From sequence record PV714130: 40,625 bases of DNA; one strand, written 5' to 3'. A model generated the notes under the pieces. It saw only the letters and a program-made list of their open reading frames with translations, had not been told where the DNA came from and did no database searches. Origin of the DNA: Escherichia phage Pipis. Below, in pieces: positions 14,816 to 29,504 of the stretch; position 1 is the first letter of the stretch; every line of letters begins with the position of its first letter. The position numbers were made by a program, and so were the translations under genes.

Positions 14816-15097
14816 ATGCCTACCGGATGTATTGTCTGCGTATCTCATAGGAGGAACCATGACGGGTATTTCCGGTACTCTATGGGAAGCTACCGAAAGG
14901 GAAATAAGTTCGCGTTCATGTTCCACCGATGGGTCTGGGAGCAGAAGCGCGGACCTATACCAAATGGCTACGAAATAGACCATTTGTGCTTGAACCGTGG
15001 GTGCTGCAACATAGAGCATCTACAGTGTATTCCAAAACGCGAACACGTCATTAAGACGAACCGTGAGCGCAAACTTGTTAAGAAGGAGTGTCGCTAA
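14816..15097 (+). CDS. HNH endonuclease (homing-endonuclease-like), gene 5.3 position
   Basis: 93 aa from the first ATG after gene 5; HNH core EIDHLCLNRGCCNIEHLQ; the longer ORF-track version (14672..) overlaps the polymerase and is unlikely. Confidence 0.7.
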   Translation: MPTGCIVCVSHRRNHDGYFRYSMGSYRKGNKFAFMFHRWVWEQKRGPIPNGYEIDHLCLNRGCCNIEHLQCIPKREHVIKTNRERKLVKKECR

Positions 15098-15387
15098 TGG
15101 CTATGACCAAACGTATGCGAGTTTCGTTCTCGCTTGGTGCTGTGTTGTCAACTGAAAACGTGGAGGACTTCAAGAAGACTCTCTGCGAGCTGAGTCGTAA
15201 GGTCCTCAACGGAGAGAAGACCACTGGTTTTGAGCGTAAGATGGTAGAGATTGGCGTGACTGAAGGTCTGGAAGCTGTAGTCGAACTGGTCTTCAAGAAA
15301 GGTATTGTCGACTGTCTGAAAAAAGACCTGAGCAACTACTCTGACCAGCCGAGCTTTTGTAACTTCCGGGTGGAGTTCGAACGATGA
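15097..15387 (+). CDS. 5.5: gene 5.5 homolog (H-NS-binding protein family)
   Basis: MAMTKRMRVSF N-terminus resembles recalled T7 gp5.5 (MAMTKKFKVSF); RBS AAGGAG upstream; ATG overlaps the HNH stop. Confidence 0.65.
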   Translation: MAMTKRMRVSFSLGAVLSTENVEDFKKTLCELSRKVLNGEKTTGFERKMVEIGVTEGLEAVVELVFKKGIVDCLKKDLSNYSDQPSFCNFRVEFER

Positions 15388-15593
15388 GTGAATACTTACG
15401 GGTCCTAGCGGCCCTTAAGTCCTGCCCGAAGACCTTCCAGTCCAACTATGTGCGCAACAACGCTGCACTTGTGGCTGAGGCTGCGAGTCGTGGACATCTA
15501 AGCTGCCTGTCTATGGATGGGCGTAACAACGGTGCGTGGGAGATTACCGCTGAAGGCACCAAGTTCCTGAACCAACACGGAGGCTGTCTATGA
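15384..15593 (+). CDS. 5.7: gene 5.7 homolog
   Basis: 69 aa; MSEYLRVLAALKSCPKTFQSNYVRNNAALVAEAASRGH closely resembles recalled T7 gp5.7. Confidence 0.65.
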   Translation: MSEYLRVLAALKSCPKTFQSNYVRNNAALVAEAASRGHLSCLSMDGRNNGAWEITAEGTKFLNQHGGCL

Positions 15594-16039
15594 AGATACC
15601 TGAAAGTCTGAAAGAGCTGGTCCTTGAAATGGGTGAGTGCGAGATGACGCACCGTAAGTATGCTGAGTTCTACGCATCTTGGTCTTACACCCTGACCGAG
15701 AAGGACGTTGAGTCCTACACCGAGTCTCCTTCTGAGGCTTATGAGTGGAGTCCGTTCATCGGACTGACCATCGTAGCTAGCGGTATGTGGGATGACAGCT
15801 ACGGCTCAGAGGTAAACGACTGGGACGTGTACCGCCAAGTTGAGAAGGAGACCGAAATGTCTTCCAACTTCTGGAGCCTGATGTCCCACCTCAACTCAGA
15901 TGACAACGACATGGCCCATGAGTTCGCCAACAAATGGCTGAAGCCTGAGGTGACTCTGGAACGTATTGAGGAGCCTAAAGTTCCCTTGATGCCATATGCA
16001 GTCGCTATGGCTACAGGAGGTCTGGACGATGGGTGCTGA
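15590..16039 (+). CDS. hypothetical highly acidic Trp-rich protein (149 aa) at gene 5.9 position
   Basis: About 30 Asp+Glu vs 11 Lys+Arg, 6 Trp; occupies the slot of the small acidic RecBCD inhibitor gp5.9 in T7 but is about three times longer. Confidence 0.5.
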   Translation: MKIPESLKELVLEMGECEMTHRKYAEFYASWSYTLTEKDVESYTESPSEAYEWSPFIGLTIVASGMWDDSYGSEVNDWDVYRQVEKETEMSSNFWSLMSHLNSDDNDMAHEFANKWLKPEVTLERIEEPKVPLMPYAVAMATGGLDDGC

Positions 16040-26758: not shown

Positions 26759-26769
26759 GAGGAGGACTA

Positions 26770-29052
26770 ATGGCTAGTAATATTGAATCAGCTCTGGCTA
26801 ATCGGACTATGGGTCGCGGCAGAGCGCCGGGTAAAACTATCGCCGTCAACTATCAAGCAGCCAGCGTTCAGGCTCCAACTGGTGACTCCGGTCTGGCTCG
26901 TGCGTTAACTAACTTCGTTGAGTCTGGGACTGGATTGTACAAGCAGTTCAAGGACGAGGAGAAGACACGGGCCGACGAGCGGTCTAACGAGATTATCCGT
27001 AAGCTGACACCTCAACAAAGACGTGAGGCTATCCAGAACGGCACACTGCTGTATCAGGATGACCCTTACGCTATGGAAGAACTTCGAGTCAAGACTGGTC
27101 GTAATGCTGCCTTTGCTGTAGACGACGAGATTAACGTTAAGATTCAGAACGGTGAGTTCCGTACACGTCAGGACATGGAAGAGTATCGCCACCAGCGACT
27201 TCAGGACGCCGCTAAGTCCTATGCTGAAGAGGCGGGTATTAACCCTACAGACGAGTTCTTCCAGCGTGGGTTCAACGATAACATCACAGACCGCAACATC
27301 GCTATCTATGGGTCTTTCAATAAGTATTTCAGCAAGCAGTCTGAAGAGACAGCAATGTTGAACACTCGTATTGAGATGAACTCATTCCTGAACGATGGCG
27401 ACCTGATGCGTTCACCTGAGTCTGGCAAGACATTCATGGCCTACCTTCGTGATGGACTGACTACTGCTGCTATCCCCTCGGACCAGCGAGCGCGGGAGGT
27501 CATTACCCAGACGGTACGTGACGCAATCCAGAAGTCAGGAGGCTCAAACTTCCTACAGCAAGTCCGTGGCGAGCGTATCGCCCTTAACGGTGTTGACGCT
27601 ACCGTCGAAGAGATTGTAGGACCTGACGTCTTCAATGCTGCTATGGTTGAGGCCCAAGGTACTGAGTATAAACTGGTGGCTAAGTATCAGGAAGACTTGT
27701 CGTTAGGCGTTCAGTCTGCGATTCTTCAGGATGACCCAACCATTGGTCTTGCCCAGATTCAGAAACTCAAGGAGCAGAACAACCTGCTTCAGCCGGGTGA
27801 AGAACTCACGCCTCAGCGTCAGATGCTTATTAATGCCGAAGCCAGCTTACTGGAAGCGGTCAAGCGTAAGTCTGCTGAACAGGTGAAGGAGAACACTAAG
27901 TTAATCCAGACCCAGAACAAGCAACTTGTCATCGACCAAGTGTATCAGCGACGTCTGGCTGGAGACAACGTGTCCACCAACTATGAGGACCTTCCGGTCT
28001 CTGAATCCACAGGAGAGTTCAAGCGTTCAGACATGAACAACTATGCGTCTTCTAAGCTACAGCAGATTGACCAGATGGACATCCCTGAGGCTGCTAAAGA
28101 CGCACAGAAGGTTGCATTATTAAGGGCTGACACTAACAATGGTCCGTTCCGTAATGCCTTCCAGACGCTGACTCAGGACGCTGCTGGTGAGTGGCAAGCT
28201 GCGGTCATCCGTGGGCAGTACGACCCAGACAAGATGCAACGCTTCGAATCTCTTCGTCGTGCCTACACTCAGGACCCTTCAAGTTTCGCTGCTCTGTATC
28301 CTGACCAAGCTCAGTTGTTCTCTACGTTCGACCAGATGGACAAGATGGGTCTGGACCCTCAGACGATGATTGAAGCTGATAAGCAAGCTGCAAGTCAAAG
28401 CCGTGAGATGCGCATGGAGTCAGACAAGGCGTGGCAGGAGTTGAAGAACGACTCTCGGAATAAGGACCTTTCGCGTCTTCCTACGTCTCTAGACTCAAGT
28501 GCTCGTAAAGTCTGGGACTCATGGTACTATCGTACAGGTAACGCTGACGCTGCAACGCAGCAGACTCAACGCTGGCTGAATGAGAACACCGTAACGTTCC
28601 AGTCTGAAGGTTCTGACGGTAAGTCAATCGGCATGGTGTCCAAACACCAGCTTATGGTCGGGGATAACCCTGAGTCGTGGCAGGTGGGTCGAGACATTAT
28701 CGACACAGCCCGTAAGCAACTCATCAAGACTAACCCTTGGGTCGTGAACTCTCAGCTCTCTGTAGTTGAGCAGAACGGCTCGGTCTTCCTGCAAGACGCC
28801 ACTGGGACCATTCGTATTCGCTACGATAAGGAACTGGTAGGCAAACTGTACCGTGAACAGCAGAAACAAGCTGAGGATAAAGCCTATGCTGAAGCTGAAC
28901 GTAAAGCAAACACCCGCGCTCGCATTGTCGAGACTAAAGCGGCTGGTGATAAGCGTCGAGCGGAGCGTGAAGGAAACATCCAGAAACGCGGCGGTATGTA
29001 CAGTGATGTCTCGCTGGAGGGTATCGCAAACACCTTAATTGGTAAGGAGTAA
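26770..29052 (+). CDS. 15: internal virion (core) protein C
   Basis: 760 aa; DERSNEIIRKLTPQQRREAIQNGTLLYQDDPYAMEELRVKTGRNAA nearly identical to the recalled T7 gp15 segment, with further collinear blocks. Confidence 0.92.
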   Translation: MASNIESALANRTMGRGRAPGKTIAVNYQAASVQAPTGDSGLARALTNFVESGTGLYKQFKDEEKTRADERSNEIIRKLTPQQRREAIQNGTLLYQDDPYAMEELRVKTGRNAAFAVDDEINVKIQNGEFRTRQDMEEYRHQRLQDAAKSYAEEAGINPTDEFFQRGFNDNITDRNIAIYGSFNKYFSKQSEETAMLNTRIEMNSFLNDGDLMRSPESGKTFMAYLRDGLTTAAIPSDQRAREVITQTVRDAIQKSGGSNFLQQVRGERIALNGVDATVEEIVGPDVFNAAMVEAQGTEYKLVAKYQEDLSLGVQSAILQDDPTIGLAQIQKLKEQNNLLQPGEELTPQRQMLINAEASLLEAVKRKSAEQVKENTKLIQTQNKQLVIDQVYQRRLAGDNVSTNYEDLPVSESTGEFKRSDMNNYASSKLQQIDQMDIPEAAKDAQKVALLRADTNNGPFRNAFQTLTQDAAGEWQAAVIRGQYDPDKMQRFESLRRAYTQDPSSFAALYPDQAQLFSTFDQMDKMGLDPQTMIEADKQAASQSREMRMESDKAWQELKNDSRNKDLSRLPTSLDSSARKVWDSWYYRTGNADAATQQTQRWLNENTVTFQSEGSDGKSIGMVSKHQLMVGDNPESWQVGRDIIDTARKQLIKTNPWVVNSQLSVVEQNGSVFLQDATGTIRIRYDKELVGKLYREQQKQAEDKAYAEAERKANTRARIVETKAAGDKRRAEREGNIQKRGGMYSDVSLEGIANTLIGKE

Positions 29053-29054
29053 AC

Positions 29055-29504
29055 ATGAAGAACGGGACAGCCAGTGAGAGACTGGCACGTCTTTCTATTT
29101 TGGAAGAAACTGGCTGTATCCGCTTCACTGGAGGTCTAAACAGCAGTGGGTATGGAAACCTATGGGTAGACGGAAAGACCGTAGGAGCGCATCGTGTTGC
29201 CTATGAGTTAGCGAATGGTCCAATACCGAAAGGTAGTGTACTTCGTCACACTTGCGACAACAGGTATTGCGTGAACCCTAAACATTTAGTATTAGGGACA
29301 CATCGTGACAACATGGAGGATATGACCAAGAGAGGGCGTCAAGCTAAAGGCTCACAGATTAGTACCTGCGTACTGACTGAAGATGACGTCAGGTTTATCC
29401 GTTCAAGTGCGAAGAGTGGTGTGGAACTGGCACGGATTTTAGGAATCTCACCAGTAACTATTAGTCGAGTCAAGAGGAGATTAACATGGCAGCACGTGGA
29501 ATAA
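29055..29504 (+). CDS. HNH homing-endonuclease-like protein inserted between genes 15 and 16
   Basis: GYGNLWVDGKTVGAHRVAYELANGPIPKGSVLRHTCDNRYCVNPKHLVLGTHRDNM: HNH motif, paralog of 18288..18698; C-terminal helix-turn-helix-like tail (ELARILGISPVTISRVKRR). Confidence 0.8.
   Translation: MKNGTASERLARLSILEETGCIRFTGGLNSSGYGNLWVDGKTVGAHRVAYELANGPIPKGSVLRHTCDNRYCVNPKHLVLGTHRDNMEDMTKRGRQAKGSQISTCVLTEDDVRFIRSSAKSGVELARILGISPVTISRVKRRLTWQHVE

Follow-up and report, generated by a model that had tools for sequence, protein, structure and literature searches.

Escherichia phage Pipis (sequence record PV714130) has a genome of the Kayfunavirus type (K1F-like Studiervirinae, T7 family). The stretch of 40,625 nucleotides (nt) analyzed here, referred to below as the window, carries its genes in the same order as K1F and T7, every one of them on the plus strand. 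Three open reading frames (ORFs) with an HNH motif are interspersed among the conserved genes of this window: HNH1 (14816-15097, 93 amino acids) follows the DNA polymerase gene 5, HNH2 (18288-18698, 136 amino acids) separates gene 7.3 from the portal gene 8, and HNH3 (29055-29504, 149 amino acids) separates genes 15 and 16, which encode internal virion proteins. Our comparative analysis indicates that all three are very probably free-standing homing endonuclease genes, i.e. selfish mobile nuclease cassettes.

Results

All three ORFs have ATG starts and match the Pfam family HNH_3 (PF13392) above its gathering score of 24.8 bits (HNH1 69.5 bits, E 2e-19; HNH2 46.9 bits, E 2e-12; HNH3 55.7 bits, E 4e-15), which confirms the three HNH genes listed in a preliminary description of the sequence. 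Each also matches HNH endonuclease families in PHROG, with E values of 1e-27 to 1e-35. No fourth HNH-like ORF was found in a six-frame phmmer search and motif scan of the whole window, including the slots of T7 genes 2.8 and 3.8. HNH2 and HNH3 are indeed the paralogs they had been taken for, with 44% identity over 134 amino acids (E 8e-34) and the motif GYG..GPIP.G.V..H.CDNR.CVNP.HL in both; HNH1 is distant from either of them (E about 1e-8).

In an alignment of HNH3 with 68 homologs, residues C21, Y33, G34, H46, H65, C67, C72, H77 and N86 are invariant and N69 is conserved in at least 90% of the sequences. From this alignment HNH3 is predicted to possess an H-N-N active site and a Cys3His zinc site. 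The equivalents of H65, N69 and N86 are H48, N52 and N69 in HNH2, and H56, N60 and H77 in HNH1. The catalytic HNH residues, on which the preliminary description had made the nuclease assignment depend, are thus present on alignment in all three ORFs. An AlphaFold2 model of HNH3 (predicted local distance difference test score 92.2) shows a beta-rich N-terminal part, a His-Me finger and three C-terminal helices. In a Foldseek comparison of this model with the PDB the top match is I-HmuI (probability 1.00, E 7e-4), followed by I-PpoI and Smad MH1. HNH3, the one ORF modelled, is accordingly predicted to adopt the beta-beta-alpha-metal (His-Me finger) fold. PDB searches by sequence with HNH3 and HNH1 gave chance matches only.

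Pairwise ratios of nonsynonymous to synonymous substitution rates (dN/dS) are 0.05-0.16 for HNH1, 0.04-0.29 for HNH2 genes of lineage A (see below) and 0.08-0.30 for HNH3, from which it follows that all three genes are maintained by selection on the protein. The ORFs lie between complete conserved genes and not in an intron or intein. The phage promoter (consensus CTAAACTATCACTATAGG) occurs in 11 copies spread over the Pipis genome, and none of these lies directly upstream of HNH1, HNH2 or HNH3.

A megablast search with window positions 14000-34000 returned 164 phage records with at least 80% query cover, the best at 93-94% identity and nearly all of them Kayfunavirus; the hosts of the matching Kayfunavirus records are E. 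coli and its relatives. Site occupancy was counted in 20-24 Kayfunavirus loci per site, plus further GenBank records. Among these loci four carry a gene like HNH1 at the first site, eight (in two lineages) carry one at the second and three at the third. All three genes are missing from most viable close relatives, and K1F itself has no nuclease gene at either 7.3/8 or 15/16.

HNH3 and the junction of genes 15 and 16

HNH3 combines an HNH_3 domain with a helix-turn-helix and belongs to the T7 gp7.7 family (53% amino acid identity to T7 gp7.7). Upstream lies gene 15 (internal virion protein C, 26770-29052; Pfam Phage_T7_Gp15 on a homolog) and downstream gene 16 (internal virion protein D/transglycosylase, 29486-33382). 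The overlap of the HNH3 stop with the gene 16 start that had been pointed out before is exact: gene 16 begins with the ATG at 29486, and the HNH3 stop codon (29502-29504) ends 19 nt into it. Codons 2-7 of gene 16 are recoded relative to empty alleles to fit the overlapping HNH3 C-terminus and stop, and the start signals of gene 16 (29473-29488, AGAGGAG-ATTAAC-ATG) are embedded in R-R-L-T-W codons of HNH3. The same arrangement is found in all nine occupied alleles examined, where a 149-amino-acid ORF starts 2-5 nt past the gene 15 stop and ends 19 nt inside gene 16. Where the site is empty, gene 16 uses an AAGGAG located at the gene 15 terminus; where it is occupied, the nuclease gene uses this AAGGAG, and the R-R-x-T-W codons (AGGAGAnnnACATGG) give gene 16 a new ribosome-binding site and ATG (9/9). 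These overlap codons are the sole consistent difference between occupied and empty versions of gene 16.

As had been proposed, the insertion at 15/16 is additional with respect to T7, where a gap of 26 nt without any ORF separates genes 15 and 16. Comparing the junction across relatives, as the preliminary description had recommended, reveals occupied as well as empty sites. About 23 of about 220 Kayfunavirus records have a recognizable nuclease gene at this position; identity to HNH3 is 97% in TM1, 93% in GA2A, 90% in Ro45lw and 56% in CR44b, and a metagenomic phage reaches 99%. The gene is labelled "HNH homing endonuclease" in the GenBank record of TM1 and "7.7C: predicted homing endonuclease" in that of CR44b. 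L024, a more distant T7-like contig whose portal is 65% identical, has an HNH ORF at this junction as well.

HNH3 sits in the middle of a mosaic patch. Sliding identity shows that 28700-30300 is SH4/EV136-like within a K1F-like backbone: the patch is 92-99% identical to EV136, SFPH2 and SH4 versus 65-87% to K1F, and the relation is reversed on either side. Sequenced members of the SH4/EV136/SFPH2 group have no nuclease gene at 15/16. A smaller exchanged unit, comprising the HNH3 cassette and the first ~55 codons of gene 16 (29036-29649), forms an island shared with the metagenomic phage L080, with 8 mismatches in 614 nt (98.7% identity) against about 78% on both flanks. In the five K1F-like backbones with a nuclease gene at 15/16 (TM1, GA2A, CR44b, PH1061 and ST20) the upstream flank is K1F-like up to the gene (5/5), but over the first 300-400 nt of gene 16 the same five depart from K1F. 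By analogy with free-standing endonucleases whose cut falls some way off from the gene encoding them, this asymmetry suggests that the HNH3 cut site may lie downstream in gene 16 or at the 15/16 junction.

HNH2 and the junction of genes 7.3 and 8

HNH2, likewise an HNH_3 protein with a C-terminal helix-turn-helix and a member of the T7 gp7.7 family (43% amino acid identity to T7 gp7.7), is interlocked with both neighbors. The stop of gene 7.3 (18040-18291) overlaps the HNH2 ATG (ATATGA), and the ATG of the portal gene 8 (18691-20259) lies 8 nt inside the HNH2 ORF, with the gene 8 ribosome-binding site (GGAGG, 18679-18683) supplied by W-R codons of HNH2. An exchanged cassette can be delimited at 18283-18729, where the window and Ro45lw differ by only 4 mismatches in 447 nt (99.1% identity); beside this island identity is about 64% upstream and about 82% downstream. 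The HNH2 protein is 100% identical to its Ro45lw counterpart, and this cassette is also found, at 98%, in GA2A and Penshu1. Islands of 99% within flanks of 64-82% are the signature of a mobile cassette for HNH2 and HNH3, and the mosaic breakpoints coincide with the nuclease genes. The putative co-conversion tracts are short on the upstream side and extend over 30-400 nt downstream.

The 7.3/8 site has been occupied repeatedly. At least three nuclease lineages (A, B and a KM02 type; 37-44% amino acid identity between them) are found at the identical position. Salmonella phage Seyj3-1 (L088) and Monomax (L087) retain a remnant of 84-85 nt, in which the first ~20 nt are joined to the last ~65 nt. 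Locus L009 and the clade of Salmonella phage PRF-SP2 (L089) have an otherwise empty site with a 12-nt footprint GGAGGCACGTAG of the 3' end of an HNH2-type gene, and judged from this trace the large Salmonella Typhi phage clade of PRF-SP2 appears to have lost such a gene secondarily. Intact genes, remnant and footprint, read as successive states, make up the complete series of invasion, decay and loss that a homing endonuclease gene would be expected to leave behind.

In gene 8, 8 synonymous differences cluster in codons 11-19 (18723-18745), and this cluster is associated with an occupied 7.3/8 site. Of 13 alleles with an intact gene 12 have it, as do 3 of 3 remnant or footprint alleles among single loci and the PRF-SP2 footprint allele, and it is missing in 13 alleles that look never occupied. 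Interpretation of the cluster as a target-immunity signature, for which 9/9 occupied versus 2/15 empty alleles had initially spoken, was weakened by Penshu1 and PRF-SP2 among eight added genomes. Given the Penshu1 exception we treat the cluster as a co-conversion tract linked to the gene, which only possibly represents an immunity change.

Two observations concern the relation between the second and the third site. Every IMG/VR locus occupied at 15/16 is also occupied at 7.3/8 (window, GA2A, Ro45lw and CR44b compared). The structural module (genes 8-15) is bracketed by HNH2 and HNH3, yet it is not co-inherited with them: over 23500-25500 GA2A is 63-83% identical to the window.

HNH1 and the slot after gene 5

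Gene 5 (DNA polymerase, 12613-14784) is uninterrupted in the window, encodes 723 amino acids without an intron and is 96% identical at the amino acid level to exon 1 of K1F gp5. An Rfam search found no family in the window; the K1F intron region is also blank in Rfam, so this search is uninformative on introns beyond the uninterrupted gene 5. HNH1 follows directly, with a possible alternative TTG start at 14801. Its last five codons and stop (15081-15097) are a duplicate of the gene 5 terminus (compare 14768-14784). The junction of genes 5 and 5.5 in empty alleles, GAAGGAGTGTCRCTAATGGCTATGACC, is identical to the HNH1 3' end, which thereby keeps both the ribosome-binding site of gene 5.5 (AAGGAG) and its TAATG overlap (ATG 15097).

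HNH1 is an ortholog of T3 gp5.3, with 83% amino acid identity over 90 residues and the same slot directly after gene 5; its identity to the HNH protein encoded in the K1F gene 5 intron is 49%. In phages with just 55-57% identity in gp5, HNH1 still reaches 80-83%, and the 93-amino-acid form, the length of T3 gp5.3, is kept across genera. The preliminary description had assigned the first two ORFs to the T7 5.3 and 7.7 slots. Both positions are right, but T7 gp5.3 is not an HNH counterpart. We can discard HNH1 as a T7 gp5.3 homolog: there is no BLASTP similarity between the two, and T7 gp5.3 matches PDDEXK_5 (PF11645), of the PD-(D/E)XK type.

The slot after gene 5 takes four states in 22 intron-less Kayfunavirus loci: it is empty in 11, holds an HNH1-type gene in 4 (plus the window), a PD-(D/E)XK gene in 3 and an ORF of 58-60 amino acids in 4; K1F and Ro45lw have a gene 5 intron with its own HNH gene. 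The PD-(D/E)XK ORFs (PF11645), which are T7-gp5.3-like, are found in the HNH1 slot of L006 (6511-6939), L010 (6836-7258) and L013 (6399-6821). These three loci carry the variant gene 5 allele of the window, at 94-100% nucleotide identity over 14550-14750. With PD-(D/E)XK and HNH1 genes in one slot beside one polymerase allele, two unrelated nuclease families evidently alternate at this site.

The variant 3' end of gene 5 (14550-14784) includes the position homologous to the insertion site of the K1F intron, which falls at 14628|14629, separates H from D in WIHDE and is 188 nt upstream of the HNH1 ATG. This 3' end is 62-82% identical to empty-slot genomes and 90-100% identical to the carriers L018 and L019 and to the PD-(D/E)XK loci L006, L010 and L013. 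Codons just 5' of the intron-insertion position are altered in all 8 genomes with a slot nuclease versus 1 of 15 non-carriers (GA2A). Six of the eight share Tyr->Leu and Val->Ile, and a different variant is seen in L002 and L008; with the exception of GA2A, all 14 intron-less genomes without a slot nuclease read AYMAWVHDE. T3 likewise has Val->Ile, two codons before the intron-insertion site. Such codon changes would look like target-site immunity for HNH1, a pattern that linkage alone could also give, and 14550-14784 is our candidate for the target and immunity region of HNH1.

The fourth kind of slot occupant, the conserved ORF of 58-60 amino acids (MAKTYSEQEVKDLMRSAWWCGHEES...), occurs in L003 (6640-6816), L004, L007 and L009 and has no Pfam match.

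Discussion

The idea that these are free-standing HNH genes, as first suggested from the sequence by itself, is supported by family membership, active-site residues, the HNH3 fold, the polymorphism of all sites and cassettes conserved beyond their flanks. Under this explanation, a case of classical intron-less homing, the genes are co-transcribed with neighboring genes by the phage RNA polymerase, and translation of each nuclease is coupled to the upstream gene. In co-infection, each encoded His-Me-finger (HNH) nuclease would cut or nick a relative that has no copy of the gene, in or near a conserved flanking essential gene. HNH1 is predicted, from its homology with T3 gp5.3, to act at the intron-insertion site of gene 5. 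The likely target of HNH2 is either the junction of genes 7.3 and 8 or the gene 8 5' end, and that of HNH3 either the junction of genes 15 and 16 or the initial 300-400 nt of gene 16. The damage would be repaired by recombination with the carrier genome, so that the nuclease gene and a short flank are copied into the recipient; the carrier would be protected since its own target is split or altered. Exclusion of nearby marker alleles would arise as a by-product; in co-infection such marker exclusion, which the preliminary description had raised, is a reasonable expectation. Nuclease activity, target positions, homing and marker exclusion are what we infer from the comparative patterns.

Several well-known systems offer points of comparison. 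Homing-endonuclease homologs have long been established at T7 2.8, 3.8, 5.3 and 7.7 and T3 5.3. Gene 5.3 of T3, whose product is known as F-TslI, has reportedly been demonstrated to be a free-standing homing endonuclease (by Bonocora and Shub, in Curr Biol in 2009) and is said in the same work to cut intron-less DNA polymerase genes at the position of the intron-encoded I-TslI. T3 gp5.3 has its slot and its short single-domain architecture in common with HNH1. The differences are that T3 belongs to the genus Teetrevirus and Pipis to Kayfunavirus, that the upstream ATG of T3 is missing in the window, and that the last five codons of HNH1 derive from a duplicated gene 5 terminus. T7 gp7.7 resembles HNH2 in combining HNH_3 with a C-terminal helix-turn-helix, in sequence, where the similarity extends over the whole length, and in occupying the same 7.3/8 slot; the C-terminal motif is KTWRHI in T7 gp7.7 and TWRHV and TWQHV in the window. 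It differs from HNH3, which occupies a site, 15/16, that is empty in T7. We are aware of no functional characterization of T7 gp7.7, and to our knowledge no cleavage site has been mapped for the gp7.7-like family. At the level of domain architecture HNH3 also resembles I-HmuI of phage SPO1 (PDB 1U3E), an intron-encoded HNH nicking endonuclease: features in common are an N-terminal beta region, a His-Me finger, a C-terminal helix-turn-helix and an H-N-N active site. The two are only 17% identical, however, with a TM-score of about 0.4, and I-HmuI is encoded in an intron and has no Cys3His zinc site.

The genes at 15/16 in CR44b (7.7C), GA2A, Ro45lw and TM1 agree with HNH3 in insertion point, length (149 amino acids) and the 19-nt overlap with gene 16. 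The window differs from these phages in that HNH3 has SH4/EV136-like flanks within a K1F-like backbone, a combination unique among the records examined. T4 SegG and MobE and the ICP1 nucleases are similar: here too a nuclease gene is placed between essential genes, flanking sequence is expected to be co-converted, and breakpoints fall at the nuclease gene. In contrast, T4 Seg proteins are GIY-YIG and ICP1 nucleases T5orf172 enzymes of other phage groups, and the window has HNH genes known from comparison alone. In ICP1 phages nuclease genes are found at the boundaries of genetic exchange (PMC10448857), and differences in homing-endonuclease genes are noted as a main way in which T7-like phages and Kayfunavirus vary (PMC4925675; PMC8861465).

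Could the three ORFs instead be domesticated phage factors, acting in packaging (like the HNH protein HK97 gp74), host-DNA degradation or exclusion of competitors, whose patchy distribution reflects ordinary modular recombination? We regard this as improbable. It would fit with the location of HNH2 directly upstream of the portal gene, with the purifying selection on the ORFs and with a report that ties plaque size in a Kayfunavirus to an HNH gene beside the gene for the large terminase (PMC8861465). In Pipis, however, as in K1F, the terminase genes are located far away at the right end of the genome, and the ORFs are HNH_3 proteins of the T7 gp7.7 and T3 gp5.3 types and not of the terminase-associated type (PF01844). 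All three are also dispensable, judging by their absence from most viable close relatives. On family, position and dispensability we reject a packaging role of the HK97 gp74 kind for HNH2. Finally, what is exchanged is the nuclease gene by itself, accompanied upstream by 5-20 nt of flank, a pattern that self-mobilization predicts and selection for a module does not. A scenario of inactive relics of old invasions, spreading passively through general homologous recombination, seems marginally less probable still. Decay products at 7.3/8 do exist in other phages, HNH1 is short (93 amino acids) and devoid of a helix-turn-helix, and Penshu1 tolerates HNH2 next to a putatively sensitive gene 8 haplotype. 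By contrast, the Pipis ORFs are undisrupted and have lost none of the invariant catalytic and zinc-binding residues, dN/dS stays at 0.04-0.30 even in comparisons where dS is 0.4-0.9, and 93 amino acids is a length that HNH1 conserves across genera and shares with T3 gp5.3. Islands of 99% in backgrounds of 64-82% moreover imply very recent transfer centered on the gene itself.

Some observations nevertheless weigh against homing by all three genes as outlined above. The target sites of HNH2 and HNH3 are predicted from linkage patterns only. The genomes compared share phylogeny, and Fisher tests on carrier-linked variants therefore overstate independence. Among the genomes compared, the SH4-like allele that flanks HNH3 in the window otherwise occurs only where HNH3 is missing, and no donor lineage is found among them. 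HNH1 is without the C-terminal helix-turn-helix that its intron-encoded relative possesses. Penshu1 has an intact HNH2 beside an empty-type gene 8 haplotype, which argues against this haplotype as the determinant of immunity. We also considered a more far-reaching scenario, in which the post-gene-5 slot is a contested landing site, with convergent targeting and cassette replacement by HNH and PD-(D/E)XK genes, and in which HNH2 and HNH3 form a "homing-endonuclease island" that drives exchange of genes 8-15 and resists deletion. This we consider rather unlikely, if less so than domestication or passive decay.

Annotated counterparts of all three ORFs, 92-100% identical, exist in GenBank/RefSeq phages. 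As they lie at the same sites in relatives, the finding is correct but already known. The insertion at 15/16 is not new either, since it is annotated in CR44b (as "7.7C"), GA2A, Ro45lw, TM1 and others, and nothing here goes conceptually beyond established homing-endonuclease biology. The most interesting leads are the sharing of one slot and one polymerase allele by HNH and PD-(D/E)XK genes, and cassettes that supply or preserve downstream translation signals. For annotation and engineering, the three genes are of value as dispensable selfish cassettes and as markers of recombination hot spots in K1F-like therapeutic phage candidates. Their deletion needs care, because each ORF overlaps or supplies the translation start of 5.5, portal or gp16. 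The comparative patterns also yield concrete target predictions for HNH1 (gene 5 intron-insertion site), HNH2 (gene 8 5' end) and HNH3 (first 300-400 nt of gene 16).

Other features of the window

Another sporadic gene is located between genes 5.7 and 6. This ORF of 149 amino acids (15590-16039, plus strand) overlaps the gene 6 start, matches solely PHROG 4382 (unknown function) and no Pfam family, and is present in 5 of about 24 relatives (L002, L003, L008, L009 and L013). In the overlap of genes 7 and 7.3, an 18-nt segment (18012-18029) is shared with L002 and L019 and is missing or unalignable in every other relative; in the bin 18000-18050 these two are 98-100% identical, versus about 60% for the others. 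G+C content falls to 0.447-0.459 at 34000-37000, in the region of the gene 17 tail spike (ORF 33448-36642), versus about 0.51 elsewhere, and this drop suggests that the receptor-binding module at gene 17 may have been laterally exchanged. Near the right end of the window (40524-40578) there are perfect tandem 15-nt repeats, ACCTACAGTCTAACT, in overlapping 25-nt copies at 15-nt spacing, similar to the short repeat arrays beside T7-type genome ends.

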